From Candidatus Poribacteria bacterium (GTDB taxonomy: Bacteria > Poribacteria > WGA-4E > JAJDTR01), in contig CBDCTK010000002.1 of NCBI GenBank assembly GCA_965222225.1, forward strand, positions 5,248,001-5,312,000: DNA of 64,000 nucleotides, given 5' to 3'. Position 1 is the stretch's first letter, and the number at the start of each line of letters is the position of its first letter. The position numbers and the translations under genes were made by a program. The notes beneath the pieces are model-generated. The model was given only the letters and a program-made list of their open reading frames with translations, had not been told where the DNA came from and did no database searches. Shown here one piece after another: positions 567 to 55,989 of this stretch.

Positions 567-743
567 AATCAAGCGACCAGAAAGTGAGCAGGATTTTTTA
601 TCGCCCTTCCTATCCGGTCGGTTGATCGATAGAGTTCTCACCAGCCTTTGGGAGTCCCTTTGTGCAATCAAGCAACTGAACAAGGAGTAGGAGGGGCATC
701 TTGCCCCGACCGACCCAGTAACAACGAGTGCGATAGTAATCCC
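567..743 (+). repeat. Cluster of ~37-bp GATCAA...GCGATAG..ATCC micro-elements: reverse copy 591-627 nested in a forward copy; a second forward copy 666-743 interrupted by a GTAG REP at 687-710
   Basis: Direct reading and alignment with the other copies in the window. Confidence 0.8.
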
Positions 744-931
744 ATGGAGCCCCCTTTTTTCCTCAATACTCGGTTTTCCCGTCCCTTCGACCCTTCCATT
801 CTTCCAGTCACTCTCCCCGATTTTCCCTTTCACTTGCCCTATTTATGTCCATCTGCGTGCATTGCACTCTTTCATCCTCCCTTTCTTCCTTTCAATCCGC
901 ATCTGAGGCGCTGGGCCTCCTTCGTTGTTTC

Positions 932-960
932 TTGACATCTTCGTTTGCATGTGTTTTAAT
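932..960 (+). promoter_or_regulatory. Candidate sigma70-type promoter upstream of the TonB-dependent receptor
   Basis: TTGACA (932-937), 17-bp spacer, TGn-TTTAAT (955-960); the -10 box has one mismatch at a key position. Confidence 0.4.
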
Positions 961-1097
961 AAAAAAGTTCCCTAATCTCCACCGATAATCCCTAGAGTGG
1001 CACCCATTGTACTCAACACCGATGCGCTCGAAAGGGCGTTGAAGGTGATAAAAACAGCACTACCCAGCGCTTCAATTGTAATACCTTTCGAGCCCGC

Positions 1098-3302
1098 ATG
1101 AAGTGGTTTCGCCTATCTTTAGTTGCCATCTTCCTAATTAACAGTATACAAGCGATAGCTTTGCCCCAATCCGCTTCTGTTTCGGGACAGGTTGTTGATG
1201 ATTTGACATGGCTTCCAATTAGTGATGTCCAAGTTACACTTGTAGTAGAAGAAGCGACAATCCTCTCCCGGACCGATGCGAACGGGAATTTTCGGTTTGA
1301 TGGAATTGCACCGGGCACATACACGCTTCGTTTTGTTCGCGACACTTACCAAATGTTGGAGAGAGTAATTGATGTCGCCAGGAATCTGCCGGCATTGACG
1401 GTTTCGCTGAAGAGCCGCACGGTCCAGCTTGAAGAGATTCTGGTCACGCCTGACGACGATGCTCTCGCTAATCTTGAAAAAACGACAGATCTCGCGCTCT
1501 CTGAGGCGCGACTGGATGAAAAGATGGGGATTACGATCGCCGACGCGCTTAGCGATGAGGTGGGAATCGCGCAACGGTCGATGGGACGCGCGGTAGCGCG
1601 TCCGGTCATTCGAGGCATGGGTGGTGACCGATTGCTCATTCTTGAGGATGGCGAACGCACAGGCGATAAATCTGCATCCGCGGCAGACCATGCGGTTGCA
1701 ATCGATCCGAGCACCGCGAAAAATATCAAGGTAATCCGTGGCCCCGCGTCGCTCATCTACGGTTCAAACACCCTCGGCGGCGTCGTAAATGTCAAACGCG
1801 AAACTATCCCGAAAGCCGTGCCCAACCACCCTACGGTAGACCTCAAGTTTCAGAGTGAATCCGTCAATTCGGGAATTGCCGCGATAACAGGGTTGACGGT
1901 TCCAGTCGGTGATTTTGCCTGGAGGTTGGCGTGGAATCGTCGCTATGCTAATGACACGCACACTCCTGTTGGCGTTTTGGAAAACACATCTCTGTCAAAT
2001 ACCAGTTTTTCAAGCGGTGCTTCCGTGGTCAAGAACTGGGGTCACGTTGGCGTATCGGGGGGTCGATACCGTTCCGATTACGGGATTCCCGGGTCACCGG
2101 AAGGACACATCTCGGGAGTCAACATCGCACTCGATCGCCAGCGGTATGAAGGCAACGTTGAGTATGCGTTCAATGACTCATATCTTGAGAAGTTGAAACT
2201 GCACTCCACTCATACGCGCTATCAGCATCAGGAGTTTGAATCAAACAAAACACTCGGAGTTGAATTTGTTGCATTGACTTCCAACGTGTCCGCGTTGGCA
2301 CATCTGGAGGGTGATGCAATAGCGGGAATGTGGGGCGAGTATCGCGATCATTCGACGGGCGGATTCTACTGGACGCCACACACGCGGGAGATTTCTATCG
2401 CGGGTTTCTACTTCAATCAGAGACAATTCAACGACTTTACACTACAAGGAGCAATTCGCTACGACATCAAGCGAGTCGAGCCGTTTAAGACAGGCACTGT
2501 AACCCGCGCAGGAATGGTTCGGCGCAGAAACTTTGGCGGCGTGTCAGGTGCCGTGTCGGGCATCTACCATTGGAGCGACGGTTTGAAGACTGGGGCGACG
2601 ATGATGAAAGCGTTTCGTGCTCCCGGAATTGAAGAACTCTTTTCGGATGGGCCTCATCTTGCAGCTTACTCCTACGAGATTGGTAACTCCGAACTCGACA
2701 CCGAGAACGGCTGGGGAACAGAGGCGTTTCTGCGCTATTCGGTAGGTCGGGTAAAGCTGAATCTCGCACTTTTTCGCAACCAGATTTTCGGTTACCTGAT
2801 TCCGACTAACACCGGCGAAAAGGAGTGGGGCAGCGGCGCCGTGGGATGGTTGTGGATTTATCAATACCGAGGACAGGATGCTATCCTCGACGGTGCCGAA
2901 TTGAGCGTTGACGCCGAAATTATCCCGTGGTTGCACGCGCAGGTGCGCATGAGTTATGTCAGGGGGACTTTGGCGACCAATGAATTGCCAGTTGAACGTA
3001 TTCCGCCTCTAAACGGAAAAGTGGCGATCCGACACGTGACAAAATCGTCGAACTTTCACGTGTCGGCGCGATTCTCGGATTCGCAGCACCGGTTAGGCGA
3101 GTTTGAGCTTCCTACGGATGGATACATCGCCTATGACGTGGGTTGCCAGTATATGTTCTCGATTTGGGGGCTTCAACATCAAACGGTTTTTGCTATTGAG
3201 AACATCCTTGACACGGAGTACCGGCAACACCTTTCGAGAATCAAAGTGGTAATGCCGGAGCCGGGACGCAACGTCAAGTTCCTGTATCGAATCGGATACT
3301 AA
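1098..3302 (+). CDS. TonB-dependent receptor with N-terminal carboxypeptidase-regulatory-like domain (ZnuD-like metal uptake subfamily)
   Basis: Signal peptide; plug motif RPVIRGMGGDRLLILEDG..DHAVAIDP..IKVIRGPASLIYGS; C-terminal ENILDTEY..PEPGRNVKFLYRIGY; lies next to a CzcA-type exporter. Confidence 0.9.
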   Translation: MKWFRLSLVAIFLINSIQAIALPQSASVSGQVVDDLTWLPISDVQVTLVVEEATILSRTDANGNFRFDGIAPGTYTLRFVRDTYQMLERVIDVARNLPALTVSLKSRTVQLEEILVTPDDDALANLEKTTDLALSEARLDEKMGITIADALSDEVGIAQRSMGRAVARPVIRGMGGDRLLILEDGERTGDKSASAADHAVAIDPSTAKNIKVIRGPASLIYGSNTLGGVVNVKRETIPKAVPNHPTVDLKFQSESVNSGIAAITGLTVPVGDFAWRLAWNRRYANDTHTPVGVLENTSLSNTSFSSGASVVKNWGHVGVSGGRYRSDYGIPGSPEGHISGVNIALDRQRYEGNVEYAFNDSYLEKLKLHSTHTRYQHQEFESNKTLGVEFVALTSNVSALAHLEGDAIAGMWGEYRDHSTGGFYWTPHTREISIAGFYFNQRQFNDFTLQGAIRYDIKRVEPFKTGTVTRAGMVRRRNFGGVSGAVSGIYHWSDGLKTGATMMKAFRAPGIEELFSDGPHLAAYSYEIGNSELDTENGWGTEAFLRYSVGRVKLNLALFRNQIFGYLIPTNTGEKEWGSGAVGWLWIYQYRGQDAILDGAELSVDAEIIPWLHAQVRMSYVRGTLATNELPVERIPPLNGKVAIRHVTKSSNFHVSARFSDSQHRLGEFELPTDGYIAYDVGCQYMFSIWGLQHQTVFAIENILDTEYRQHLSRIKVVMPEPGRNVKFLYRIGY

Positions 3303-3303
3303 C

Positions 3304-3512
3304 GATCAACTGAGTGGATAACGAAGGCGATAGAAATCCCATACAGATCTTACCAGCCTTTGAGAGCGCCAGCGGCGATCAAGCGACTGATTAAGGAGCG
3401 CGATAGTAAATCCCGTGCGATGGAAATCTTCAGGTGTATAGCAGCAAGCCACCCTACACCAAGGCCCCGGTGCGGGATCAACCGACCGGAAAGGAAGGAC
3501 GATAGAGATTCT
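3304..3512 (+). repeat. Three ~37-bp micro-element copies (3304, 3377, 3476) plus extra 3' ends, inserted in short palindromic repeats
   Basis: gatcaactgagtggataacgaaggcgatagaaatccc; gatcaagcgactgattaaggagcgcgatagtaaatccc; gatcaaccgaccggaaaggaaggacgatagagattc. Confidence 0.85.
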
Positions 3513-3630
3513 CATGCTTCGCATTGGAAAGACTCGGTCGACACTATTTGTAACCGCTTATAATTGCAAATTTAGGGTGATGGTATTATTGCCCTACCCG
3601 ACAACATTGACAAGCAGGCGCACGTACTAT

Positions 3631-4275: not shown

Positions 4276-4370
4276 AGCTCCTCCTACATGTCTTGCTCAT
4301 GTCTTGCTACAAGGGCCCCCAGTCTGGAAACAATGCCGAGATAGGCATTGTCCGGTTTTTCAGGGTTTCG

Positions 4371-5516: not shown

Positions 5517-5517
5517 G

Positions 5518-17260: not shown

Positions 17261-17407
17261 GGTGCGATCAACCGACTGATTAAGGAGGGCGATAGAGATC
17301 CCCTGCGATCAAGCGACTGGACAGGATCAAACGAGTGGATAACGATTAAGTGACCGAATAGGGAACGCGACAGCAAATCCCGTGCGATAGAACTCTTGCC
17401 AGCCTTT
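17257..17407 (+). repeat. GTAG REP split by four nested micro-element starts
   Basis: gtagggtgc[gatcaa..atccc]ctgc[gatcaa..[..]..gatagaactct]tgccagcc; compare intact REP at 27178. Confidence 0.8.
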
Positions 17408-17511
17408 TCTCCGTGTCGTGATACCGCGACGGGAAAATTTCGGCACGCTGACATGCCCGATTACATTTTTGTCCGATAAAGGCGAACGATGTGACCCAAT
17501 CTCCGATTGAC

Positions 17512-18792
17512 CTAGCGCTCCTGCCAACGCCCCGGCTCCGGATTCTTCTGCACCTGTTGGAACAGATTCGCCCACTCGATTGAGCCGTCATCGTACCACA
17601 CTTCCAAACGTGCGCCTTCCACCTGCGCTTCCGCAATGCCCTGTTTGAAATAACTTAACCGGTCGCCTTCCATATGGATACAACTGCCATCCGGATATAC
17701 TACGGTCTTGATAATCCGAGGCTCTGGATGTATGTAACGCCCCTCCGCGTCGAGTTTTTCGTCGGGCACGCGGTATTTTTCGATGGCGTCTTCATCAACT
17801 TCAACACCGAGACCGGGAGCGTCCGGAACTTTGTGACATCCGTCCACAACTTCGATTGGCTTCTTGAGCAAATGGTGACTGTACAGATTAATGCAGGTAA
17901 TCGCAGGCCAAGTAGCGTGGGTAAGTACCGCGCCCAGATGGCCCGCCCAGGTTGTCGTCAGTCCGTTCCCCACGATCTGCAACCAGAAGGGGAGTTCCGC
18001 CTCCGCGCTAAGAGACCCTTGACGAACCACGATGGACTTCCCACCACCGATGACATACCCATCACAAACAGACTCACGGATGTTGACCTTGTAGGGTGGT
18101 GAACCGAAGTGCATCGCAATCGGTCGGTCTATGGCTTGGCGAATCCGCTTGTTGTCCGCCACATTCTCTTGTGGTATCGGTGATTCAAACATCGCCACGT
18201 TGTCGTATTTCGCCAACTTCGCCATGATAGGAATGGCGGTTGCCGCATCTTGGAAAGAACCGTTTGGATCCAGATCGAGTTTGAAATCCGCCGGCACAAC
18301 CTTGGAAATCGCATCAACCTGTTCGACGATATCCCACCACGGGCGCGGTTTATTCTTGAAACTGGTGTAACCGCTTTCCACGGCATCTCTGGCTTCAGCC
18401 GCCCAGTTTTCCGGCGAGGCGTCAATCGACCACCACGAAATTGGCGCTGTGTCTCTCACCTTCGTCCCCAGTAATTCGTAGACCGGCACCTCCAGAATCT
18501 TTCCCACCACGTCAAAGAGTGCCATCTGCAAACCCGCGCCGAGAGAGTCGTCGTTCATCAATTTGGCGGGGCTTTCCCCTAGCACACGCTGTACGCTTTC
18601 GTCGGTAACACGTCCATAGGTGTAGTGGATGACCGTCTCCCCCCATCCCACATGCCCGGTGTCCGTGGTCACCTTGCACAGTTCCAAAATGGACCAGTTG
18701 TACACATTGGATACGCTCTCGATAGTGATTTGGTTCTGCCGAGGCGTAAACGGTACGTCAACAATAGTGCGTTCGACATTAACAACTTTCAT
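17512..18792 (-). CDS. Mandelate racemase/muconate-lactonizing (enolase superfamily) enzyme
   Basis: TDTGHVGWGE, MALFDVVGK..VPVYELLG, KNK, LDPN, FESP, PDAPGLGVEVD. Confidence 0.9.
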   Translation of the reverse strand: MKVVNVERTIVDVPFTPRQNQITIESVSNVYNWSILELCKVTTDTGHVGWGETVIHYTYGRVTDESVQRVLGESPAKLMNDDSLGAGLQMALFDVVGKILEVPVYELLGTKVRDTAPISWWSIDASPENWAAEARDAVESGYTSFKNKPRPWWDIVEQVDAISKVVPADFKLDLDPNGSFQDAATAIPIMAKLAKYDNVAMFESPIPQENVADNKRIRQAIDRPIAMHFGSPPYKVNIRESVCDGYVIGGGKSIVVRQGSLSAEAELPFWLQIVGNGLTTTWAGHLGAVLTHATWPAITCINLYSHHLLKKPIEVVDGCHKVPDAPGLGVEVDEDAIEKYRVPDEKLDAEGRYIHPEPRIIKTVVYPDGSCIHMEGDRLSYFKQGIAEAQVEGARLEVWYDDGSIEWANLFQQVQKNPEPGRWQER

Positions 18793-18891
18793 CTGTACCC
18801 CTTTCTCCGCTTATAGTCATTACAATAAGGATTTCGCATATAGGACTTAGGTTGTTCGGTTTGTAGTAGCATAATTTATTGTGCGTCTCCT

Positions 18892-18945
18892 GTAGGAGCG
18901 ATCTCCCGATCACGACTTCCTGTAGCGAGCAAAGTTCACCTTTAC
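18892..18945 (+). repeat. Degenerate GTAG REP doublet
   Basis: gtaggagcgatctcccgatcacgac...gcgagcaaagttcacctttac; same family as 48128-48200. Confidence 0.65.
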
Positions 18946-19033: not shown

Positions 19034-19115
19034 GTAGGTTGGGTTGAACAATCAAGCGACTGAATAGGGAATGCGATAGTGACTCCCTGCGATAGGAATC
19101 CTAGTGAAACCCAAC
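19034..19115 (+). repeat. GTAG REP with micro-element (19050-19102) inserted in its loop
   Basis: gtaggttgggttgaac[aatcaagcga...gaatcct]agtgaaacccaac versus the empty form at 33066 gtaggctgggttgaacacagtgaaacccaacctac. Confidence 0.85.
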
Positions 19116-19142: not shown

Positions 19143-20567
19143 CTAGAATGGGTTGAGTTCGTTTTTAAGTTCTTCCACCGCATTCATGGCATCCTCCAAT
19201 TCCTGTCTAGGTATGTTCACAATGGTAGCATGGCTGAGCGGGTTAAGGATAATGCTTCGACCCAATTCGATTTCGTGAATGAGAGTTTGTTTTAGTTTGC
19301 AAGTGACTTTGTTTTTGATTTTGATGGAATCCCAGAAATCCTGACTGTCCAGTTTCTTCGGGTCGCTGCGATACCGGACCGGGAGACGTTCATCATCGCA
19401 ATACTTTTTTATTATTGTTTCAAAAGCCGTGCGGATGTAGATTGCACAAGCTTTGTAGTCGCAGGCATCAAGATGTTCCTGTGCCTTCTCAAGATACGCC
19501 TTATTTTCCACATAGACCGGCATTTCAAATTTGTCTGTTTGTGCGAAATAGAATTCAACGGCTTTCCATTGCCTGTTCGCGGAGGCCCACTGTTTGACAA
19601 TCTCATACCACGCCTTATCGTAAGTCATCAGAAAAATCTGGTACTCTGAGAAATATTTCTTCAGAATGTCAAGTACCGGGAAACGATTTGACATGTCCAA
19701 GCCAATCAACACGTCGTCAAGAGCGAGAATCTTCAACTCGCTGTCCGGTTGAAGTAAGAACCCTGCGAAATAGAGGGATAAAGCAATCGCAGACAGTTTC
19801 GCTTCGTTCAAGAAACTGTGATACGCGGCGAGATCTCTGTCAAGAAACTTCACCTTTAGTGAAATCTGCTGATTATCTAGCGTCTTGTCGTGACGGTTGT
19901 ACTTAATCTTATCAAAGCCCAGGTCCAGAATAACATTGTATCCAAACTCGTTGAGGATTTCAGATGTCAACGTCTGTAGTTCTGCTAGCTTACCGGTCAA
20001 CTCATTATTGAACGATTCAACTTGTTCTTCAAGTTCTGCAATCTGTGTGGTTGCGTTTCGGCGAGGACGTGGTGCTTTTCGTAGGTCATCCCAGTCGTCG
20101 ACGAGACTTCGATTGGATTTGTCGCCAATAGTATTACCTAAGAGATTGTCAATCAGTAGCACGAAGACATTCACGTCCTCTTCATCGTGATTGACATTAT
20201 GCGTCTTCAGAAGCGCCTTGTAATCTAGGAAGCCCTTTGCCTTTGATGCATCAATAATACGTTGGTTCTCCGTCTCTCTAACAGTTCGCGACCATTTGTA
20301 GATACACTCATTTGGAACTGAATCCGCCTGGAGATGGAGCTTAGTGTATCCATCATCCTTAATGAAGATGTTCTGATGATTTTCAAATCGGGCAGAGGTA
20401 TCCTCACTGGATTCAAGAAACGACTTTAATGCCAGATACAGCGACGATTTTCCGCTCCCATTCTCGCCGTAGACCAGCAGATTTTTCCCTGCTTTATGAA
20501 GGTCAATCTCCAAGGTTCCACGGAAGGCTCTGAAGTTTTTAGTCTTGATTTTGGTGATTCTCACCAC
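19143..20567 (-). CDS. ABC/SMC-type ATPase with C-terminal HEPN-like domain (PrrC/RloC-like anticodon nuclease candidate)
   Basis: KNFRAF, Walker A GENGSGKS, signature-like FLNEAKLS, Walker B LALDDVLIGLD, switch MTYD; C-terminal IRTAFE and LNPLSH match the PrrC/RloC RxxxE...NxxSH pattern; GTG start overlaps the upstream TGA. Confidence 0.8.
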   Translation of the reverse strand: MVRITKIKTKNFRAFRGTLEIDLHKAGKNLLVYGENGSGKSSLYLALKSFLESSEDTSARFENHQNIFIKDDGYTKLHLQADSVPNECIYKWSRTVRETENQRIIDASKAKGFLDYKALLKTHNVNHDEEDVNVFVLLIDNLLGNTIGDKSNRSLVDDWDDLRKAPRPRRNATTQIAELEEQVESFNNELTGKLAELQTLTSEILNEFGYNVILDLGFDKIKYNRHDKTLDNQQISLKVKFLDRDLAAYHSFLNEAKLSAIALSLYFAGFLLQPDSELKILALDDVLIGLDMSNRFPVLDILKKYFSEYQIFLMTYDKAWYEIVKQWASANRQWKAVEFYFAQTDKFEMPVYVENKAYLEKAQEHLDACDYKACAIYIRTAFETIIKKYCDDERLPVRYRSDPKKLDSQDFWDSIKIKNKVTCKLKQTLIHEIELGRSIILNPLSHATIVNIPRQELEDAMNAVEELKNELNPF

Positions 20568-23500
20568 TTGTCCTCAATGATACGAATCGGTCTTAGACTA
20601 TCCTGAAAGAAAAGGTTGACCCGAACTGGATGTTCTTTATGGTACAGGCGCTCATATAGAGCGCGGAATGCAAACATTTTATCTCCGTGAATCTCTTTCA
20701 CTTCCGACAACTGCTCCGCCATCAGATGTTTGAATAAATCTCTGTTACCGCCCTGGAGCACATCGGGCATGTAGAACTCATAAAACAGCCCGTTGATTAT
20801 ACGCTCGAAATATTTGAGCATCAGGAAATCGCGAGCATGGGCTAAATCCTTGCCGCTCGTTGTCGGTTGGTTTTGAAGATAGATGAGGTACTCGACAATC
20901 TTGCGAACCAAGTTTTTCTGCTCTGCATTGAGGTCGGGAACGGGAATCTGCTTTATAAAGCCGCCGCGCGCTTGAAGTTCGCCCGGGCCTGACTGGTCAG
21001 AAACTTGGTAATAGAACCACTCCACGGTGCGCGTATTGAGTAAACCGCACAACCACGTTTGCTCCGTGGGGATGATGTAGCAAGTAGAGCCGCAAAAATA
21101 TCCATCGGCCTCAACCGCAAAGGTTTGGGTGTTATAAAGGTTCGGACAGACCAGCTTCGGTACCGCATAGCGCTCAATCTCCTCGACGGATGCTTGGAGC
21201 TCGTACCATCCCCCTTTGCCTTTTCTCTTGCTAAGAGAATCTCGGTGTTTTTCTAGGTGTCTTCGAATGGCTGGATAGGCGTTTATCTCTATACCACGGT
21301 AGGCAAAGATTAACCACTGCTCCGGTGGTTCCACTTGCCAGCGTCTTATGTCCCGCCCATGCAGGATTGGCTTCAGAATATCTTCGGACGAAGGGTGTTC
21401 TGCAATCAGTTTATCTCGCGTTTTGCCGTCTACTACAAACACATCAGTCGGTGCTGTTTTGATTCCGAAAAAGGGCTGCGTCTTGATATATTCTCCCAAC
21501 GGCGTACCAGTATCGCGAAGTCTCTTCTCCAAATTCAACATTTCTGGAGAATCATCCAGAGAACGAGAAGACTTTTCATCGACGGTTATGGCTTTTTCTT
21601 TCATGGGATAACGGTTCCTAAAACCTTGGCGAACCAACATCGCGATATCTTCCGGCAACTTAACCTGATTTGCCCGCTCAAAGGCGGCAATGTTTTTGTA
21701 ATCGTTGCGAAACGCCGCGCCAATATCCACACCTTTCTTCTTGGCAGTGATCAGATTTGCTTTGGCTTTGTCCCATTCTTTCAGGTGCAACCAAACTTCA
21801 GCGCGATTGTAATAGGCGTTAGCATAATCTCGTTTTATCGCGACATCATACTCTTCAATTGCGCGATTGTACTCACCGTTTTTGTAATAAGCAACTCCCC
21901 GATTGTTGTAGGCTACAGCAAGCGCCGGGTTGAGTTCAATGACTTTGCTATAGTCCTTGATGGATCGGTCAAATTCGCGTTGTTGATAATAAGCAATAGC
22001 ACGATTGTGATAGGCGAGGAAGCAATTAGGTTTCAGTTCTATTGCCTTATTATAGTCCTTGATGGCCCGATCAATTTCGCCCTTGTTGCGATACGCAGCA
22101 CCGCGGTTGTTATATGGTGCGGGATTCCAAGGTTCCAGTTCTATTGCCCTAGTACAGTCGATGATAGCGCGATCGTTCTCGCCTTTACTACGGTAAGCAC
22201 CTCCACGATTGCTGTAGGCCGCGGCATAGTTCTGTTTGCGCGCTATTGCTTTGCTAAAATCCTCAATAGCCCGGTCATGTTCACCTTTGTTACTGTTGAG
22301 CGTCCCACGATTGTTATAAGGCTCGGGATCGTCAGGATTGAGTTTTATCGCTGTGTTGTAATCTTTGACAGCTAGGCCAATCTTCCCTTGTTCATCGTAA
22401 GCAATGCCTCGGCTGTTATATGCGTTCGCATAATTGGGATTGAGTTGTATTGCTTTGTTAAAGTCTTTGATTGCCCGATCAACTTCATCCTTTTCGTGGT
22501 AAGCAATGCCGCGGTTGTTATAGGGATCAGCACAATAGGGATTGAGTTTAATCGCCACGTTAAATTCGTCAATTGCGCGATTGATTTCACCATGGTCACG
22601 GTAAGCAACCCCTCGATTATTATAGGCATTGGCATAATCCGGTTTGAGTTTGATAGCCATGTTAAAGTCTTTAATAGCTCGGCCATAATTACCTTTATCG
22701 TAGTAAACTGCACCACGATTATTGTATGGTTCGGCAAGGCCTGGGTTTAATTGTATTGCTGTATTAAAGTCTTTGATGGCTTGGTCTACCTCGCCCTTAT
22801 CGCGGTAAGCATTACCCCGATTGTTATAAGCTATGAAAGAGTCGGAATTTCGATCTATCGCTTTGGTGAAGTCTTTTATGGCCCTTTTGATGTCGTGCTT
22901 ATTGCTGTAAACCATTCCGCGATTATTATAGGCCATGGCAAAATCGGGTTCGTGTTTAATTGCAGTGTTAAAGTCTTTTATGGCCCGGTCATAATTACCT
23001 CTATCACAGTATGCATTGCCGCGATTATAGTAGGCGTTGGCATCGTCGGCCCTAAGTTCTATCGCGGCATTAAAATCCTTGATAGCAAGGTCATACTCGC
23101 CCAGTTTGTGATAGGCAATCCCTCGGTTGTTGTAGGGCTTGTCCTCATTGGGATTACGTCGTATCGCGTGATTAAAGTCCTTGATAGCAAGTTCAACCTC
23201 GTCTTTATCGACGTAAACAGTGCCGCGATTGTTATAGGCGGCGGCATCACCAGGATTGAGTTGTATCGCTTGATTGAAGTCCTTGATGGCAAAGCCATAC
23301 TCACCTTTGCTGTTATACGCAACCCCGCGGTTGTTGTATGCGTCGGTATCACGGGGGTTGAGTTCAACCGCCAGTGAGTAAGCTTCTATAGCCCCGTCTA
23401 TTTGCCCAAGCCTCAGAAGAAAATCACCTTGTTGGAACGCCGATTCAGCGCGTAACTCTCGTTCAGACATCCTAGGTGCCGAATCCTCCTGAACTAGCAT

Positions 23501-24004
23501 TTTGCGAACCGCTTTCCGGGTACCCTCCACCACATTTTGCCAGCCTTTGCTCCTAGGATTCCATTCGTTGAGAGGTTTGCCTTCGGCAGGGAGAACTTGG
23601 ATGTCACCGAGTATCTGGGGTTCCCATCTGTTAGGGTGCAAGCCCTCGGCGGACGGAGCCTTAGTACTTCTCAATTGATGATTCTCCCAGTCGCACGCCT
23701 CAAGGATAATCGGAATAACCCGTGTGTCTGTTTTTAACGCCTCTGCCAACTCCTTGTTGCAATTATTAGAGGCAAGACTTGCAGCCGAGACTAAGTATAG
23801 GAGAATATCCGAATTGGCTAGGTTATCGGCAATGTCTCTATACCACTCATCGCCCGGGAGAATTTCGTTGTCGTCCCAAAGTTCTATCTCGCCTCTGTTT
23901 TCCATCACGGCAAGGCGAGTTCTCAATTCCTTCCTTTCTTCTTTATCGTTATGTGAATAAGTAATGAATGCTTTTGGTCCTGCGCCCATTCTCATGTTCT
24001 CCAC
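20561..24004 (-). CDS. TIR domain + 17 TPR repeats + TaqI_C/Eco57I-type restriction-modification specificity domain
   Basis: AFITYSHND..LWDDNEILPGDEW..SLASNNCNKEL..VIPIILEAC (TIR_2, Glu retained); 17 AYNNRG-type 34-aa repeats (~23449-21722); GTPLGEY..GIKT..LHGRDIRRW..YPAI..HL..WYELQ..PKL..GLLN..IKQIPVP (type IIG TRD, ~21508-20561). Confidence 0.88.
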   Translation of the reverse strand: MENMRMGAGPKAFITYSHNDKEERKELRTRLAVMENRGEIELWDDNEILPGDEWYRDIADNLANSDILLYLVSAASLASNNCNKELAEALKTDTRVIPIILEACDWENHQLRSTKAPSAEGLHPNRWEPQILGDIQVLPAEGKPLNEWNPRSKGWQNVVEGTRKAVRKMLVQEDSAPRMSERELRAESAFQQGDFLLRLGQIDGAIEAYSLAVELNPRDTDAYNNRGVAYNSKGEYGFAIKDFNQAIQLNPGDAAAYNNRGTVYVDKDEVELAIKDFNHAIRRNPNEDKPYNNRGIAYHKLGEYDLAIKDFNAAIELRADDANAYYNRGNAYCDRGNYDRAIKDFNTAIKHEPDFAMAYNNRGMVYSNKHDIKRAIKDFTKAIDRNSDSFIAYNNRGNAYRDKGEVDQAIKDFNTAIQLNPGLAEPYNNRGAVYYDKGNYGRAIKDFNMAIKLKPDYANAYNNRGVAYRDHGEINRAIDEFNVAIKLNPYCADPYNNRGIAYHEKDEVDRAIKDFNKAIQLNPNYANAYNSRGIAYDEQGKIGLAVKDYNTAIKLNPDDPEPYNNRGTLNSNKGEHDRAIEDFSKAIARKQNYAAAYSNRGGAYRSKGENDRAIIDCTRAIELEPWNPAPYNNRGAAYRNKGEIDRAIKDYNKAIELKPNCFLAYHNRAIAYYQQREFDRSIKDYSKVIELNPALAVAYNNRGVAYYKNGEYNRAIEEYDVAIKRDYANAYYNRAEVWLHLKEWDKAKANLITAKKKGVDIGAAFRNDYKNIAAFERANQVKLPEDIAMLVRQGFRNRYPMKEKAITVDEKSSRSLDDSPEMLNLEKRLRDTGTPLGEYIKTQPFFGIKTAPTDVFVVDGKTRDKLIAEHPSSEDILKPILHGRDIRRWQVEPPEQWLIFAYRGIEINAYPAIRRHLEKHRDSLSKRKGKGGWYELQASVEEIERYAVPKLVCPNLYNTQTFAVEADGYFCGSTCYIIPTEQTWLCGLLNTRTVEWFYYQVSDQSGPGELQARGGFIKQIPVPDLNAEQKNLVRKIVEYLIYLQNQPTTSGKDLAHARDFLMLKYFERIINGLFYEFYMPDVLQGGNRDLFKHLMAEQLSEVKEIHGDKMFAFRALYERLYHKEHPVRVNLFFQDSLRPIRIIEDKW

Positions 24005-24121: not shown

Positions 24122-24252
24122 GATCAACTGACTGAATAACGAGGGATCAAGCGACTGAACAAGGAGCGCGATAGAGATCCCATAGTAAATCCCGTAGTGA
24201 CCGATCAACTGAGTGGTCAACGAAGGCGATAGCAGATCCCGATAGAAATCCC
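24122..24252 (+). repeat. Nested micro-element cluster (copies at 24122, 24145, 24203)
   Basis: gatcaactgactgaataacgagg[gatcaagcg...gagatcc]catagtaaatccc and gatcaactgagtggtcaacgaaggcgatagcagatccc-gatagaaatccc. Confidence 0.85.
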
Positions 24253-24337
24253 ATTCAGACAAGCGATAGTACATCGCCCCCTAAAATCGCAAGAACTTCA
24301 GTGTTTGACGTGCTCCATCAGTCATTGAATGATCCGC

Positions 24338-30668: not shown

Positions 30669-30849
30669 GTAGGGCGCGCACTGCGATCAAGCGACTGCAT
30701 AGGGAGTGCGATAGAACTCTTACCAGCCTTTGAAAGCGTCAGCGTGCAATCAACTGAGATCGAACGAGCAAACAGCGATTAACCGAATGGATAGTGAGTA
30801 AAACTTTCTATCGCCCTCGCTGTTCACTCGGTTGATCGATAAAGATCCT
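30669..30849 (+). repeat. GTAG REP interrupted by a micro-element, then further nested copies including a reverse copy (30801-30837)
   Basis: gtagggcgcgcactgc[gatcaagcg...aactct]taccagcc; gattaaccga..gagt[reverse copy]gataaagatcc. Confidence 0.8.
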
Positions 30850-30959
30850 CTCTCCAAATCACGACCTATCGTCGAGAATCGGAATTCCCTCCTACCGGGG
30901 ATATACCGTTTCCGTTTTCCGGCGCGAACAATGGGCCCGAGACAAAAAAGGCAAAACGT

Positions 30960-37223: not shown

Positions 37224-37306
37224 AAAAGCGAGCGGATAGATCAACTGAGTGAATAGCGAAGGCGATAGAAGATCCGGATAAAAATCCCAGTGCGATAGAA
37301 ATTCCC
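37224..37306 (+). repeat. Micro-element copy (37239) with stacked extra 3' ends
   Basis: gatcaactgagtgaatagcgaaggcgatagaagatcc-ggataaaaatccc-agtgcgatagaaattcc. Confidence 0.8.
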
Positions 37307-38603: not shown

Positions 38604-38939
38604 GTAGGGCGCGATAGAGATCCCCTGCACACCAGCCTTTGCCAAAACGACAGGAATACACTTCGTGACCCTCAAGTTAACTCAAGTTGCTACCTATTCC
38701 GGTAGGTTGGCCTTCCAGCCCGACCCACGATCAAACGAGCGAGTAGCGAGTAGCGAGTAGCGAGTGCGATAGAGATCTTCACAGGTTGTATGGCATAAGA
38801 AACCGCTAGATTTTGTACATTTGTAGGGTGGGCGCCGCCCAGCATTTCTTGTAGCGTGCGCACGACGATTAAATGAGCGAATAGCGAACAGGATTTCCTA
38901 TCGCCCTCCCTATCCGGTCGGTTGATCGATAGAAATCCC
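38604..38939 (+). repeat. REP and micro-element cluster: partial copy ~38607, copy 38729 with a (GAGTAGC)3 expansion, copy 38867 with a nested reverse copy 38891-38927; GTAG REPs at 38604, 38702 and 38823
   Basis: Direct reading of the sequence. Confidence 0.8.
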
Positions 38940-39041
38940 ACCTGCCTTTGCCTTTCATTGTCTTAGTGGTTGATTGAAGGGATTCGGCATGCATTCGCAG
39001 TGGATTCTTGGGCGCAATGTGCACCAGATTTGGAGGTGAAT

Positions 39042-41585: not shown

Positions 41586-41676
41586 TTTCTGCTATCGGGC
41601 ACATCTTGAACAATTCTCCGCCTTCAGTTATCTGAGGAGTTTATCTACAAAATATTTAGCATAGGGAGACGAAATT

Positions 41677-42756
41677 TTGGCTGAAACTCACAATTTTCAA
41701 GCAAGTTACCTTCACGCTGTTTCACGGCAGATATTCATGGCAGTCGAAACGCCGCGCCATATTGCCGAGACTGTTGCGGGCATCCTCGTCAACGCGAACC
41801 TCTCTGGACACGATTCGCACGGCGTGTTACGCATAACCTCGTATTTGGACATGATGGATAAGGACAGATTGCGTCCGAAGGTTGAGCCCGAAGTGGTCAA
41901 AGAAACCGACAACACCTTTGTCGTGAATGCCGGATTCGGATTCGGACACTACACCGCTCAGAAATCGATTGAGCTAGCCATTGACAAGGCAAAGCGTTTT
42001 AATATTGCCTGCGCCAGCCTCTATGATACCAGTCATATTGGACGATTGGGAGAATACGTCGAAGTAGCCGCACGCGCCGGATGCATCAGTATCGTTACCC
42101 TCGGCACCGGGCAGCGGGGCGCCTGGTCCGTCGTTCCTTTTGGCGGTGCAGTGGGAGGTTTGAGTACGAATCCGGTTGCTATCGGCTGCCCAACCGGTGA
42201 TGATTCACCGTTCGTTGCCGACATCGCCACCAGCGTGATTGCCGAAGGAAAGCTCCGTGTCGCCCGAAGTAAGGGGGAGAACGTGCCCGAAGGATATATT
42301 CTGGATAAGCACGGCAACCCGACTGTCAAAACAATGGACTTCTACGACGGCGGTTTTTTGCTGCCGTTCGGCGGTCACAAGGGCTATGCGCTATCATTGG
42401 TAACCTGCCTGCTGGGAGGATTGTCCGAAGAGTTCGACATTGAAAAAGGCAGAATGGGCGGCGTATTCATGCAGGTGATTAATGTCGAGGCTTTCACGCC
42501 TTTGGAAAAATATCAACAAGCTGTGCGGGCATTTCTCGACAACATGAAAGCGACGCCGCCGGCACCGGGTTTCAATGAAGTGCTGGTTCCGGGGGACTTT
42601 GAACATCGTTGCCGTGCTGAACGGCTGGTCAATGGCATTGATATTCCGGACACCATTCATCAGAAACTTCAGGAGCATGCGGCTGAGTTGAACATCTCTT
42701 TGGGCGGGGACATCGTTGAGCCGGGTGACATCGCGCGGTATCAGGTGAAGTCATAA
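41677..42756 (+). CDS. Ldh_2 family (malate/L-lactate/ureidoglycolate/sulfolactate type) dehydrogenase
   Basis: GHDSHG, HIGRLG.Y, TNP, D.ATS..A.GK, PFGGHKGY, VPG. Confidence 0.92.
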   Translation: MAETHNFQASYLHAVSRQIFMAVETPRHIAETVAGILVNANLSGHDSHGVLRITSYLDMMDKDRLRPKVEPEVVKETDNTFVVNAGFGFGHYTAQKSIELAIDKAKRFNIACASLYDTSHIGRLGEYVEVAARAGCISIVTLGTGQRGAWSVVPFGGAVGGLSTNPVAIGCPTGDDSPFVADIATSVIAEGKLRVARSKGENVPEGYILDKHGNPTVKTMDFYDGGFLLPFGGHKGYALSLVTCLLGGLSEEFDIEKGRMGGVFMQVINVEAFTPLEKYQQAVRAFLDNMKATPPAPGFNEVLVPGDFEHRCRAERLVNGIDIPDTIHQKLQEHAAELNISLGGDIVEPGDIARYQVKS

Positions 42757-42831
42757 TGTGGGTACATCCCCGAACAATCCGGTGAAAGATGGCGCATCGG
42801 AGACAGAGTTACGTCAAATAGGAAACAGATC

Positions 42832-43917
42832 TTGGTTGAAACGCATAACTTCACCGCAAGCCACCTTCATGCAATCACCCGGCAGATTTTCATGGGGGCA
42901 GGGGCGCCCCGCCATATCGCCGACAGCGTGGCAGGAGTCTTGGTCAATGCGAATCTTTCGGGACACGACTCGCACGGCGTCCTCCGTATCCCGCAGTACT
43001 TCGGTTGGATAGCCGACGGTTCCTTGCAGCCCGCTGCCGAGCCAAGGGTGGTGAAAGAGACGCCAAATTCGCTGCTGGTAGATGGAGGTCAAGGGTTTGG
43101 ACACTATGCCTCCCTAAAGACTATCCACATGGCAATCGAGAAAGCGCAGACCGGTAATGTGGCATGTGCCAACCTCGTTCACATGAGCCACATCGGGCGG
43201 TTGGGGGAATACGCGGAGGCCGCGGCGCGCGCGGGCTGCATCGGCATCATTACGTGCGGTGTCGGCCTTGGTTGTACGACCCCCACTCGCGTTGTGCCTT
43301 TCGGCGGGGCGATTGGCAAGCTAGACACAAATGCGATTGCCATCGGTGTTCCGACGGGCGCCGAGGCGCCGTTTATCGCCGATTTTGCGACAAGTGTCGT
43401 AGCTGAGGGAAAAGTTCGAGTCGCCCTCAGCAAAAATCTCGATCTCGCGGAAGGCTGCATCCTTGATAAATACGGCAACGCGACCGTTAAGCCCGCCGAC
43501 TTTTTCGACGGTGGCTGGTTACTCCCGCTCGGGAGGCACAAAGGCTACGCGCTTTCGTTAATAACGTGTCTCTTGGGAGGATTGTCACCTGACATTGACC
43601 TCGGAGTAGACGGCATGAACGGCGCGTTTATGCAGGTGATAAACGTTCAAGCCTTTACGCCATTAGAGGTCTATCAGCGGGCAGTACGCGCGTTCCTTGG
43701 TGGCATGAGGGAGACGCCCCCGGCACCTGGGTTTGATGAGGTGTTGGTACCTGGCGATCTGTCGCATCGCCGCCGCGTAGAGCGGCTAACCAACGGCATT
43801 GAGTTGCCGGAGACAACGCATCGACATATTCAAGACGCCGCCGCGCAATTGGGCGTCTCCTTGTCCGAAGATATCGTTGAGACGAAGGACATTGAGCAGT
43901 ATCAAGCGGTTTCATAA
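42832..43917 (+). CDS. Ldh_2 family dehydrogenase (tandem paralogue)
   Basis: Same motifs; closely collinear with 41677-42756. Confidence 0.92.
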   Translation: MVETHNFTASHLHAITRQIFMGAGAPRHIADSVAGVLVNANLSGHDSHGVLRIPQYFGWIADGSLQPAAEPRVVKETPNSLLVDGGQGFGHYASLKTIHMAIEKAQTGNVACANLVHMSHIGRLGEYAEAAARAGCIGIITCGVGLGCTTPTRVVPFGGAIGKLDTNAIAIGVPTGAEAPFIADFATSVVAEGKVRVALSKNLDLAEGCILDKYGNATVKPADFFDGGWLLPLGRHKGYALSLITCLLGGLSPDIDLGVDGMNGAFMQVINVQAFTPLEVYQRAVRAFLGGMRETPPAPGFDEVLVPGDLSHRRRVERLTNGIELPETTHRHIQDAAAQLGVSLSEDIVETKDIEQYQAVS

Positions 43918-48068: not shown

Positions 48069-48127
48069 TTTACATCCAAACTGTCCTTGAGAGTATTCGC
48101 ACATAGGTATGTTATATTTCGCCACCT

Positions 48128-48200
48128 GTAGGAGCGATCTCCCGATCGCGACCTCCTGTTACGACAAAATTCAGGAATCGCGAGCAAAACTCGCTCCTAC
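48128..48200 (+). repeat. Inverted GTAG REP doublet (REPIN-like)
   Basis: gtaggagcgatctcccgatcgcgac ... tcgcgagcaaaactcgctcctac. Confidence 0.75.
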
Positions 48201-49073: not shown

Positions 49074-49106
49074 AAGACCATAGGATAGGTTGTCGAGATA
49101 CTGCAC

Positions 49107-49185
49107 GATCAAGCGAGCGAATAGCGAGTGCGATAGAGATCCTAAGGCGATAGTAAATCCCTTAGTGAGGGCGATAGAAATCACC
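49107..49185 (+). repeat. Micro-element with two additional stacked 3' ends
   Basis: gatcaagcgagcgaatagcgagtgcgatagagatcct-aaggcgatagtaaatccct-tagtgagggcgatagaaatc. Confidence 0.8.
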
Positions 49186-49234
49186 TCATTGCGCGTCTCG
49201 AATCGGCTGTAACATTTGGATTTTTGAAATCGTA

Positions 49235-50281: not shown

Positions 50282-50398
50282 AAAAATTTCTCCCTTCACA
50301 GTAGTAGGCATACTCCGTATGCCGTACTCCGCCTTCCTTGTAAAGTCCTAAAATAGGTTTACAGATTTTATTACGCATTACTCTTCACGTATTACCCC

Positions 50399-50584: not shown

Positions 50585-50625
50585 GACGTTCTCCTTGATT
50601 CAGGTTCGGGTTCCTGATACCAATT

Positions 50626-51503: not shown

Positions 51504-51589
51504 CTCTGCTTTTCCGCGATTCTACCAGCCTAGCCTTCTTGCGCGTTGAGATAGTCAAATCTCCTCCACGGCGCGAGTCTGCGTCTACC

Positions 51590-53875: not shown

Positions 53876-53942
53876 AAAAAAGTTCGAAATCTCCTATCTC
53901 GTTTCTTTAATAACCCATGTTGCTACCTATCCTGTAAATCGG

Positions 53943-54009
53943 GGTCAAGCGACTGAATAAGGAGTGCGATAGTAGATCCTGATAGAGATCCCAGTGCGAT
54001 AGCTAATCC
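53943..54009 (+). repeat. Micro-element with two additional stacked 3' ends
   Basis: ggtcaagcgactgaataaggagtgcgatagtagatcct-gatagagatccc-agtgcgatagctaatcc. Confidence 0.8.
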
Positions 54010-54294
54010 AGCGCGATGAGTTCCCTTCTAACCCGATCCCTGAACGAAATCATGATATAAAAATTGCAATACAACCCTCGAAGGAACGTTTCCCACGATT
54101 TCCGATAGGTGACGACCTGAGCTCGGTACGAGTCATTTTATCATGGCGCCGTAGCGTAAACCAACTCCATCTTGGCTATAAGGTAATCATCTAACGATCG
54201 CAATGGATCTATTCACCATCCGGCCCGGACGCGCGACGAATAGCGCTTCTACGAACCGGCGGCGATGATCGCGCATGAATATCAACCGTGCCCG

Positions 54295-55320
54295 CTACGC
54301 ATTCCCTTTCCGATAAAAATCCTTAAACGCTTTAATGAGCGTGTAAATATCGTCTCTGCTGACATCCAAGTGAATTGTCAGGCGGATTGATGTGCCTCCT
54401 GATATCAGAATGCCTCTATTCTTCATAAATTCTGACAGTGCCGCTGAATCGGAATCGGTAACCCCAATATATACCATGTTCGTCTGCGTAGGCGGGTAAT
54501 TAACGATAACCTCGTCAATTTCATTGAGCCCGTCTGCCAAAAGGGCGGCGTTCACATGATCTTCCTCAAGCCTGTCAACCTGCTTCGTTAGTGCAAAAAT
54601 ACCCGCTGCCGCCAGTATCCCAGCTTGCCTCATACCGCCGCCGAGAACTTTACGCCAGCGGCGTGCCTCCTTTATTACATCGGTCGTCGCGCAGAGCACC
54701 GATCCGACAGGAGCGCCCAACCCCTTTGAAAGACAGAATGAGACGGAATCGAAATTGCACGCGATTTCATTGACGGGAACCCTCTGCTTCACGGCAGCGT
54801 TGAACACGCGAGCGCCGTCAAGATGGAGTTTCAGATTCCGCTCTTGTGTAAACTTTCGCGCCTTGCGAAGATAGTCGAGAGGTAGAGCAATCCCGGCCCG
54901 CGTGTTCTCCAGACACAATAACTTAGTTCGAGCGTAGTGGAAATTGTCGGGTTTGATGGCGTTATCAACCGCGTCCAAATCCAGCGTGCCGTCGGAATCG
55001 AAATCTAGAGGTTGCGGCTGGATGCTGCCCAACACCGCCGCGCCGCCTCCTTCTGCCTTGTAGGTGTGGGCATCCTGTCCGACGACGTATTCATCACCCC
55101 GCTGACAATGTGACATTATCCCCAATAAGTTACTCTGCGTGCCGCTGGTGGCGAATACGGCTGCTTCCATCCCCATGGTTTCCGCCGCGAGTTCCTCCAG
55201 ACGGTTGACCGTTGGATCTTCGCCAAGAACATCATCACCGAGTTCTGCGGCCGCTATCGCCGCGGTCATACCCTCTGTAGGTCTAGTGGCTGTATCACTC
55301 CTCAGATCAATGACTTTCAT
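54295..55320 (-). CDS. ltaE: Low-specificity L-threonine aldolase
   Basis: IDLRSDT.T.PT, GDDV.GEDPT, SGTQSN, CLENT, HLDGAR, CLSKGLGAPVGS, RK.LGGGMRQAG. Confidence 0.95.
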   Translation of the reverse strand: MKVIDLRSDTATRPTEGMTAAIAAAELGDDVLGEDPTVNRLEELAAETMGMEAAVFATSGTQSNLLGIMSHCQRGDEYVVGQDAHTYKAEGGGAAVLGSIQPQPLDFDSDGTLDLDAVDNAIKPDNFHYARTKLLCLENTRAGIALPLDYLRKARKFTQERNLKLHLDGARVFNAAVKQRVPVNEIACNFDSVSFCLSKGLGAPVGSVLCATTDVIKEARRWRKVLGGGMRQAGILAAAGIFALTKQVDRLEEDHVNAALLADGLNEIDEVIVNYPPTQTNMVYIGVTDSDSAALSEFMKNRGILISGGTSIRLTIHLDVSRDDIYTLIKAFKDFYRKGNA

Positions 55321-55490
55321 GATTTTCCTCAATGGTGTAGAACTTTGGCAATTGACGGTGCAAAGCCTGGTCGTTTGGAAATTCAACGCGAAGAACACAT
55401 CAATCGCTGCAGATCTTAATTATACCATTTCGCTTGAATAACAGTGCATATGATGCCTAAATTATATCATTCACTTTCTCCGTAAGCGGG

Positions 55491-55989
55491 GATCAAGCGA
55501 GCGATTAAGTGAGTGGACAATGAACGATCAAACGACTGAAAAAGGAGTGCGATAGTAGACCCTGATAGAGATCCTTTATGGAGTACGATAGTAAATCCCA
55601 CAAAGGACATGAATAGTGACTGCGATGGAGATTCCATAGAAACACCGTTAGGCATGTCTTCTGTAGGGGCGATCTCGCAATCGCGACCTTCCCCGCTCCA
55701 GCGGAAATCAGGGGATTGTCAATCGCACCTTGAGATACTAGCGCGACGGCCTCATCACAGTGTTCTGAGAATCACGATGAGGTCTTCGTGTCTTGCACTC
55801 CCGGAGGAGTGCTATGTTAGTAGAAAGTAGGCCTTCCCTTCTCGCGCTCCAGCGGAGCGGCATGTATATCCTTCGATTGGCGAGCACGCAGGTTCGGTGT
55901 AATTGCTCCAACGATTCTCGGCTATGGGGGATCAATCGAGCGGTAAGTGACCGATCAACTGAGCGAACAGCGAAGGCGATAGAGATCCT
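55491..55989 (+). repeat. Repeat-dense spacer: nested micro-elements (55491-55643, 55930-55989), GTAG REP at 55663, hairpin pair at 55796-55868
   Basis: Direct reading of the sequence. Confidence 0.8.

Follow-up and report, generated by a model that had tools for sequence, protein, structure and literature searches.

A self-nesting hairpin micro-element dispersed through the intergenic DNA of Candidatus Poribacteria

The intergenic DNA of a Candidatus Poribacteria bacterium (genome GCA_965222225.1, here G000; two contigs, 5.70 Mb, 50% G+C) carries hundreds of copies of a non-coding micro-element of about 35-37 nt, which pairs on one strand into a small hairpin and is found inserted in other hairpins and in older copies of itself. 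The element came to attention in a 64,000-nt stretch, positions 5,248,001-5,312,000 of contig CBDCTK010000002.1 (the window), through a sequence-only reading that proposed one dispersed, self-nesting intergenic family below the size of miniature inverted-repeat transposable elements (MITEs), a proposal borne out by the analysis described here. The unit consists of ATCAA, a 17-nt hairpin, GCGATAG, one to three variable bases and (A/G)ATC(C); positions within it are numbered from the G of GATCAA as 0. We tentatively regard it as a non-autonomous single-strand DNA element, similar to repetitive extragenic palindromes (REPs) and to small dispersed repeats (SDRs), that would be moved in trans with an HUH enzyme as the probable agent, a reading to which we assign slightly less than an even chance.

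Pairing in the element is revealed by covariation and not by an obvious palindrome. The hairpin comprises two Watson-Crick pairs, a tandem G.A/A.G, two further Watson-Crick pairs and a loop R-A-Y closed by G.A. A strict pattern that fixes only the anchors GATCAA-N18-CGATAG recovers 779 copies genome-wide (434 +, 345 -), and the four covarying pairs are formed in 95-97% of them: pair 6-22 is standard in 743 (C-G 224, G-T 175, G-C 173, A-T 170), 7-21 in 740, and 10-18 and 11-17 in 755 each, with three or four pair types at every position. The remaining letters of the stem are fixed, with G8.A20 in 722, A9.G19 in 750 and G12.A16 in 754 copies. In the window alignment, 98.5% of cells are paired versus 66.1% in shuffles, and the covariation score is 1.0 versus 0.40, neither value being reached in any of 500 shuffles; changes on both sides occur at all four pairs, and partners slid by one to three columns pair in at most 56%. 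Because the four pairs vary nearly independently of one another (mutual information at most 0.34 bit versus entropies of 1.4-2.0 bits), yielding 83 pair combinations among 588 clean copies and 360 distinct stems among the 779, almost every copy differs; of 88 combinations with an expectation of two or more, 59 were seen. The alternation of fixed and two-fold-degenerate positions with a period of about 4 nt, noted in the sequence-only reading, is thus explained as compensatory hairpin pairs, and the accompanying statement that the element is not a hairpin like a REP is not supported.

Folding is strand-specific, the folding strand being the one that reads GATCAA. G.T or T.G occurs 320 times in the 779 copies versus 29 times for A.C or C.A, and the GATCAA strand is more stable than its complement in 439 of 533 copies. 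At the ends, GATC is present on the 5' side in 83% of copies, and of 633 3' tetramers 204 read GATC and 203 AATC. The terminal symmetry of 3-4 bp (GAT..ATC) originally described is present, and in many copies it extends to GGATC/GATCC, outer letters that can add a short basal stem; this is the only terminal symmetry found, with no inverted repeats of a parent insertion sequence (IS). The fixed unpaired and G.A letters fit the contacts expected of a shape-reading protein, and a design with free stems and fixed G.A letters would make a precise ligand for finding such a reader.

Copies are far more frequent than chance predicts and avoid genes. The 5' motif GATCAASYGASYG, with at most one mismatch, has 24 matches in the window (21 +, 3 -) versus 1.44 expected, and the maximum over 100 shuffles is 6. 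A covariance model (R1), built from 17 window copies (alignment A1) and run on the window with filters off, gives 21 matches at E<=1 (18 +, 3 -). All 21 lie outside long open reading frames (ORFs), in agreement with the first impression that no copy sits inside an intact coding sequence; several begin no more than a few bases from a stop codon, as at 3304, where the preceding ORF ends at 3302. The sequences first reported read as described, and the original figure of about 30 5' ends holds if truncated 5' modules are counted but not for whole copies. Across the genome, a second detector based on the hairpin skeleton finds 823 matches versus 5 on reversed sequence; the copy number is about 780-880. 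Only 116 of these 823 core matches fall wholly within crude ORFs (at least 100 aa), despite such ORFs covering 82% of the DNA, and the copies are spread over 487 separate intergenic regions. For Poribacteria annotation, the element accounts for much of the intergenic repeat content and for many spurious ORFs.

Comparison with sister genomes (nine of genus g1, with labels of the G001 type; genera and families have labels of the g1 and f1 type) shows that several of these sites are occupied in one genome and empty in another. Synteny is good, identity within genes is about 85%, and orthologous intergenic DNA can be aligned. The copy at 19050 is absent from G003 and G007 and occurs in G004 in a form shorter by one 16-nt 3' module than that of G000; where empty, the site is a terminator-like hairpin loop, GGTTAGGT AGAACA^CAGTGAA ACCCAAC. 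G005, G006 and G007 lack the cluster at 24122-24252 in the orthologous position, and the empty sequence there, ..AATCCG^CGATTCAG.., resembles the element's own G^CGATAG. Where the 17266 and 30685 copies lie, sister genomes have a GTAG-tagged REP hairpin without interruption (GTAGGGTGCGCA..GCGCACCAGCCTTTG). The 49107 cluster is missing in G005, and the 49107 and 37239 clusters are missing in relatives whose flanks are too diverged to place the ends. The comparison of filled and empty sites proposed in the sequence-only reading therefore succeeds in that empty orthologous sites exist, although it does not fix the ends of the element to the base, one extra T remaining unaccounted for even in the best empty site at 19050. 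The absence of target duplication is upheld, with only 1-3 nt shared at junctions, and a GATC...GATC target-duplication model was rejected, the 3' tetramer being GATC in only the 204 of 633 copies given above.

The sequences that flank the copies point to hairpins as landing sites. A perfect stem of at least 6 bp brackets 27 of 157 isolated copies versus 3.0% for mismatched flank pairs, and most of the copies so bracketed read GTAGGGTGCG[copy]CCTGCGCACC. Of the 779 copies, 47 follow GGTGC and 43 follow GGAGC, sequences that form the 5' arms in two GTAG REP families; TGTAG precedes only 17 and is there part of a host REP or of an array. A G precedes the ATCAA-hairpin in 792 of 881 copies. Genes for REP-associated tyrosine transposases (RAYTs) are also hit, two remnants in G000 (loci L005 and L215) being truncated by copies. 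By disrupting both REP hairpins and RAYT genes, the element may shape the REP/RAYT populations of sponge symbionts.

Older copies of the element are targets as well. Excision of an inner copy restores the outer one for 46 of 376 strict copies when the insert is defined as ATCAA..TCC, and for 48 of 376 when it is defined as TCAA..TCC plus one base, whereas joined flanks of different copies do so in just 5 of 376. A wider count of 91 of 376 allows 36 cut definitions and both orientations and comes without a matched control. With position counted in nucleotides of the outer copy that lie 5' of the insert, entry is concentrated at 24, in the context G^CGATAG (26 cases and 9 ambiguous between 24 and 25), at 21, after the GA of 19-20 (18), and at 14, in the loop (10 + 2), with 7 cases each at 18 and at 2-3. 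Inner and outer copies have the same orientation in 84 nests and opposite orientations in 7, and all 7 inverted inserts are at 23/24. Solo 3' ends are largely remnants of outer copies, the context TCCCGTG|CGATAG alone accounting for 71. The Russian-doll arrangement 24122[24145-24180]24193, originally given as an example of nesting, reads as stated.

Orientation of the element follows replication and not the direction of the neighbouring genes. Among intergenic regions that separate co-directional genes, most copies are sense in 167 and antisense in 146. Regions of negative GC skew divide into 136 + and 41 -, and those of positive skew into 47 + and 89 -, with the same result on either gene strand; in 100-kb bins, rho comes to -0.49 for skew (p 1.3e-4) and to -0.07 for gene-strand bias (p 0.62). 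The dnaA gene lies at 2.61 Mb of the 5.6-Mb contig (C2), adjoining the minimum of cumulative skew, and the polarity of skew is therefore the usual one. The window, with a skew of -0.022 and 18 + and 3 - copies, matches the genome-wide rule. The folding GATCAA strand tends to be the lagging strand, that is, the leading-strand template. This behaviour ties the element to a DNA-level, replication-linked process and not to transcription. As a separate observation, at least 8 sign changes of GC skew along the 5.6 Mb of C2 suggest that large inversions have been numerous or that replication is irregular.

Only certain lineages carry the family, a restriction typical of mobile repeats. When one genome per species was scanned with the exact pattern, at least 101 stretches matched, and all among the matches listed come from metagenome-assembled genomes of Candidatus Poribacteria sponge symbionts. 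The profile scan suggested at the outset recovers the family genome-wide and in other Poribacteria. Applied to 41 relatives, R1 matches 9 of 9 sister genomes, each saturating the 150 candidates scored, and all four genomes of g4, which belongs to another family; g2 yields three matches, and seven further genera, sampled with 26 genomes, yield none. Matches occur in 17 of 151 Poribacteria genomes searched (f1 9/9, f3 7/26, f2 0/100). In the low-copy genomes G010, G072, G088 and G133, copies occupy ordinary intergenic DNA or a small number of short contigs; a search of these four for a master locus found none, the single G072 site being itself a nest. A pattern scan of viral contigs gave 0 matches. 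No fewer than 13 other assemblies, of which several are closed single contigs, also contain the family, as do contigs of public runs from four studies aligned to the window; contigs from four such runs were short and broken at the repeat, and none joined cleanly across the element. A literature search of limited coverage found no account of such repeats in Poribacteria.

In the reading that we tentatively favour, the element would be recognised by its shape on one DNA strand, the GATCAA strand, and copies would be inserted into unpaired DNA: the loops of GTAG REPs, terminator-like loops, and set positions of older copies, namely after G23 before CGATAG, after the GA of 19-20, and in the loop. 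Repeated self-insertion would give rise to Russian dolls and to stacks of 3' ends. Movement may take place as single-stranded DNA at the replication fork, with cutting and joining carried out in trans by an HUH Y1 enzyme of the RAYT/IS200-like type, several of which are found in the lineage. Such an enzyme is the most plausible agent because it reads imperfect single-strand hairpins, acts without duplication, is linked to replication and is plentiful in the lineage. The orientation bias would reflect strand-specific insertion or excision or, alternatively, preferential loss of copies whose folding strand is on the lagging-strand template.

A number of observations weigh against this assignment. 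The mean minimum free energy (MFE) is -5.6 kcal/mol with RNA parameters, equal to that of shuffled sequence, and -1.7 with DNA parameters, weaker than shuffled sequence, and the DNA-parameter structure includes all four pairs in just 8 of 533 copies. With so weak a predicted stem, the pairing must be kept by selection and not by obvious stability, and folding would probably need a protein, or G.A stacking that lies outside the energy parameters. The boundary of nested inserts shifts by one base between classes (ATCAA..ATCC versus TCAA..ATCCC), so a site-specific nuclease is not an obvious explanation. The polarity relative to the fork is opposite to that predicted for the active strand by the IS608 model. 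The copies also do not carry the GTAG tag that RAYTs reportedly cleave (PMC3733652).

The candidate enzymes add to these difficulties. The element is too small to encode an enzyme and, as the sequence-only reading had recognised, something must act in trans. No dedicated partner emerged, in the sampled genomes, among the Y1/RAYT loci or the single gene resembling a reverse transcriptase (RT). G000 has five loci of the Y1 HUH transposase family and a sixth remnant (L215); intact RAYTs are present in sister genomes. The L001 type, a 157-aa protein scoring 65.8 bits with the NCBIfam IS200 model (cut-off 55), has inward-facing copies on both sides, 45 and 114 nt away, and its orthologues in sister genomes are likewise enclosed; only 9 of 4352 crude ORFs have such an arrangement within 350 nt. 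As a partner it was rejected: its orthologues in g3, g4 and g6 are bracketed by a different repeat, GCCCC-N4-GGGGC GACATGT..TATAG, one copy of which type also adjoins the gene in G000; it occurs in all 7 g6 genomes of the 41-genome sample, in which the element was not found, and it was not found in 2 of the 4 g4 genomes that carry the element. L002 was set aside, being present in only 3 of 9 sister genomes. The L003 type (NCBIfam RAYT model, 92.6 bits, cut-off 80; in-frame TAG in G000) is flanked by another GTAG REP, GTAGGAGCGATCTCC..GATCGCGAC, and no relative of it was found in G004 and G008, both full of the element. The RAYT remnant L005, truncated in G000, is tightly bracketed by copies, one of which sits in the loop of a GTAGGGACAACC..GGTTGTCC REP; its intact 201-aa orthologue in G001 has no copies and goes with that REP. 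The L215 remnant, recognised by its WQRRFWEH motif and truncated by a copy at C2:1.5456 Mb, is intact in G001 and G002 and is there accompanied by the GTAGGGTGCGCA REP family. Since RAYT genes are flanked by REP hairpins and the element inserts into REP hairpins, we read the bracketing of Y1 genes as a by-product of secondary insertion. Copies abutting an enzyme gene, which the sequence-only reading had hoped to find, thus exist at the L001 and L005 Y1 loci, but neither gene fits as a dedicated partner. TnpB was not found in the genome. The sole RT-like gene, a 670-aa ORF at C2:4499563-4501572, scores 26.8 bits versus a Pfam cut-off of 29.6, has no copy nearby and is present in only 5 of 9 g1 and 1 of 4 g4 genomes, and it was rejected as well.

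Several other hairpin repeats and neighbouring genes were recorded beside these loci. A GTAG REP of the form CTGTAGGAGCGATCTCC..GATCGCGAC occurs in the window at 18890-18918, 28529-28557, 48126-48154, 55661-55689, 61462-61490, 61648-61676 and 63041-63069; it has about 100 copies in the genome, and inverted copies bracket the L003 RAYT (C2:3.089 Mb), forming a REPtron. A third repeat family, GTAGGGTGCGCA..GCGCACCAGCCTTTG, lies in the window at 30669-30684 with 30721-30735 and at 38822-38845; genome counts are 129 for GTAGGGTGCGCA and 414 for GTAGGGTG, and this family is the commonest host of the micro-element. A fourth hairpin repeat, CGCTCCAGCGGAGCGGCATGTATAT, has a single copy in the window, at 55836-55865; there are about 9 strict copies in G000, and in other Poribacteria genera this repeat brackets an IS200-like Y1 gene. 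In locus L196 (G001:C1:2228792-2232004), at about 1730-1760 of the locus, a GTAGGGACAACC..GGTTGTCC REP apparently lies inside a 201-aa RAYT-like ORF with the frame unbroken. The RT-like ORF adjoins a gene with a type I restriction-enzyme R-subunit domain, several sister copies have in-frame stops, and the locus is probably a defence locus.

A more novel reading is that of a new class of ultra-small mobile element whose identity lies in shape and not in sequence. Its 36-nt single-strand hairpin with a tandem G.A core would invade the loops of other hairpins, REPs and its own copies among them, and would dispense with a dedicated transposase, the work being done by a host activity of replication or repair or by an unrecognised enzyme. 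We consider this possible though unlikely. If true, this would be the first case of an SDR-like system beyond the cyanobacteria, and one that parasitises REP/RAYT systems.

Less probable again is an element that acts as RNA, its hairpin serving in transcripts as a protein-binding or processing site, or an RNA copy being returned to DNA by a reverse transcriptase with 5'-truncated insertions. Tolerance of G.U, sheared G.A pairs in tandem and a loop closed by G..A are motifs classically associated with RNA, and the RNA-parameter MFE structure holds all four covarying pairs in 293 of 533 copies versus 8 of 533 with DNA parameters. Copies often have extra 3' modules or a truncated 5' part, as 5'-truncated insertion would have it, but most solo 3' ends are due to nesting at position 21 (the 71 cases of TCCCGTG|CGATAG). 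Contigs from an RNA library cover copies at 17273-17640 and 24208-24538, coverage to which DNA carry-over may contribute and which is no proof of transcription. The orientation of copies is independent of flanking genes (167 sense, 146 antisense) and tracks GC skew; the Rfam 15 scan called for in the sequence-only reading gave 0 matches at gathering score in the window; and the only RT-like gene falls below its Pfam cut-off, has no copy nearby and shows a non-matching distribution.

The dependence of orientation on GC skew across several sign changes would also be expected of a host-selected, strand-skewed DNA site that is read on single-stranded or folded DNA in replication, segregation or repair, much as the skewed chromosomal motifs KOPS and Chi are. 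Such a site would be kept intact by selection, and recombination together with local duplication would be its main means of spread. This account, which we rate as improbable and below the RNA-level one, draws further on the strong conservation of unpaired letters while stems vary freely, on the presence of copies in all 9 sister genomes and a second family, and on the failure to find a dedicated transposase. Presence and absence at orthologous sites, together with interruption of repeats and of its own copies at exact positions, is nevertheless insertion behaviour; copies truncate RAYT genes; and 134 of the 151 Poribacteria genomes searched have no matches, so the element is not an essential chromosomal signal.

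Local amplification by replication slippage and unequal recombination between short repeats could have built the clusters: C2:1578410-1578600 holds tandem 38-nt arrays, tandem repeats of a 7-nt piece of the stem stand at 38744-38764, and G000 has the extra 16-nt 3' module relative to G004 at the same site. Such events account for cluster growth and not for seeding. With 487 separate intergenic regions occupied, and with insertions into unrelated hairpins whose empty site persists in sister genomes, amplification of this kind alone is very improbable as the origin of the family. An assembly or sequencing artefact, one of the outcomes that would have undone the sequence-only reading, is regarded as refuted, the family being found in the 13 or more other assemblies, several of them closed, and in the public-run contigs from four studies.

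The individual copies in the window illustrate these arrangements. An outer copy at 567-641 (+; repeat family D13) has its 5' part from 567 and its 3' part, GATAGAGTTCTC, at about 630-641, and is split by a complete inverted copy at 587-630 (-; R1 57.7 bits, pattern match 615-627 -). A degenerate copy at 666-747 (+) comprises AATCAA and hairpin at 666-688 and a 3' module, GTGCGATAGTAATCC, at about 729-744, with about 40 nt of an unrelated G+C hairpin between its parts and a weak R1 match at 705-747 (14.7 bits). Directly past the stop of ORF 1098-3302 stands a complete copy at 3301-3344 (+; 61.0 bits), followed by a complete copy with one extra 3' module (GCGATGGAAATCT) at 3374-3432 (+; 58.8 bits) and a complete, slightly diverged copy (ACGATAG, tail GATTC) at 3473-3516 (+; 49.0 bits). 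The cluster at 17263-17400 (+) contains a complete copy at 17266, truncated 5' modules at 17307 and 17325, a complete copy at 17344 and an extra 3' module (R1 58.5 and 54.9 bits). The copy at 19047-19103 (+; 51.5 bits) starts with AATCAA, has two 3' modules and lies in the loop of the terminator-like hairpin (GGTTGGGT...ACCCAAC). At 24122-24193 (+; family D3), an outer copy is broken after its position 23 by the complete inner copy of the Russian-doll example (24142-24185 +; 58.7 bits), and a complete copy with an extra 3' module follows at 24200-24252 (+; 54.9 bits).

Further along the window, a complete copy at 30682-30725 (+; R1 48.8 bits) lies inside a GTAG-tagged REP, GTAGGGCGCGCACTGC[copy]CCAGCCTTTG. 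The degenerate outer copy at 30774-30860 (+; GATTAACC...; 17.7 bits; family D13) encloses an inverted inner copy at 30797-30840 (-; 55.8 bits), and the outer copy at 38864-38950 (+; GATTAAATGAGCG...; 22.1 bits) likewise encloses one at 38887-38930 (-; 62.7 bits). Between these nests are a complete copy followed by two more 3' modules at 37236-37305 (+; 57.1 bits; family D6) and a copy at 38726-38782 (+; 32.5 bits) in which the 3' stem half AGCGAGT is tandemly repeated. Two more 3' modules also follow the complete copy at 49104-49182 (+; 57.6 bits) and the copy starting with GGTCAA at 53940-54009 (+; 55.1 bits; family D6). A multiple nest at 55491-55642 (+) has 5' modules at 55491 and 55503, a complete inner copy at 55526-55562 (R1 58.8 bits at 55523-55566), and then stacked 3' modules and a degenerate copy. 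The last site, 55930-55993 (+), consists of a truncated or degenerate 5' part at 55930 and a complete copy at 55953-55989 (R1 57.4 bits at 55950-55993).

Outside the window, C2:1578410-1578600 of G000 contains at least 5 head-to-tail units with a 38-nt period, in which the usual tail is replaced by TCTTGTAG and GTAG stands directly 5' of each GATCAA. Two repeats in the window concern genes. Within ORF 20561-24004 (-), which encodes 1147 aa, positions 21802-23349 hold fourteen head-to-tail 102-nt units of 60-73% identity, and the product resembles a protein built of 34-residue repeats, TPR-like to judge solely from the length of the unit. ORFs 41677-42756 and 42832-43917 have in common a 161-nt stretch (41674-41834 and 42829-42989; 72% identity) and are probably tandem paralogues.

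Among known systems, the IS200/IS605 elements (IS608, ISDra2) and their miniature derivatives transpose without target duplication, recognise an imperfect hairpin on one strand, have an orientation tied to the replicating strand and insert at a short specific site. The micro-element resembles them in lacking a duplication, in its one-strand hairpin, in its replication-tied orientation and in having a short specific neighbour sequence. It differs in carrying a single hairpin instead of two different subterminal ones and in a target of only G^ or GA^ in place of a fixed 4-5-nt target 5' of the left end; relative to IS608, fork polarity is reversed, and the junction shifts by one base. Preference for REP stem-loops is shared with IS1397 and other REP-targeting ISs (cited in PMC3116915), which are, however, full-size elements with their own transposase and not 36-nt passengers.

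REPs and REPINs are closer in scale. Like them, the element is a short, high-copy, extragenic, lineage-specific repeat with the compensatory changes of a stem-loop, though the predicted stability of that stem is no better than that of shuffled sequence, and in REPs, too, mismatches near the loop matter for recognition (PMC3116915 and PMC3733652). REPs are known targets and partners of HUH enzymes (PMC3733652), and the same Poribacteria genomes carry several RAYTs and classical GTAG REPs. The element nevertheless has no GTAG or CGTC tag, its stem is weak and not G+C-rich, it is not arranged in inverted doublets (84 nests in the same orientation, 7 inverted), and, among the five Y1 loci and the sampled genomes, no RAYT gene has it for a flanking repeat of its own or shares its distribution; it inserts into REPs and is not itself a tagged family. 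The CGTC REPs offer a partial parallel, as an abundant palindromic family without a dedicated transposase though IS200/RAYT genes are in the genome, and they differ in tag and sequence and, in the excerpted text, are not said to self-nest (Di Nocera et al. 2013, PMC3733652). The element fails three defining REP/RAYT tests: tag, REPtron and doublet.

The sequence-only reading knew of no described element with this behaviour, a view that has to be revised, REPs being known HUH partners and the SDRs of Nostocaceae reportedly behaving alike. Elhai and co-workers are said to have described SDRs in 2008 as very small dispersed repeats with a shared, compensated hairpin, nested in one another. By that description, SDR4-6 match the micro-element in sub-MITE size, compensated hairpin and nesting both in their own copies and in other short repeats, and in neither coding nor having a known enzyme. 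The element is longer (35-37 nt versus a reported 21-27 nt) and has a tandem G.A core, and its host is Candidatus Poribacteria, not a cyanobacterium; the likeness is one of description and not of sequence, and the relation is at most that of an analogue. Among HIP1-rich cyanobacteria, no SDR-like repeat is recorded outside Nostocaceae (PMC5861425). For its part, the HIP1 octamer GCGATCGC is rare in G000, with 117 copies. By this analogy, the element may be classed as an SDR-like, REP-invading micro-element in a second phylum. The description of cyanobacterial SDRs raised a question that has stayed open, namely how elements far below MITE size move; it becomes testable in an unrelated second lineage that offers hundreds of copies in each genome, several closed sister genomes, clear empty sites, defined insertion positions and a strand rule.

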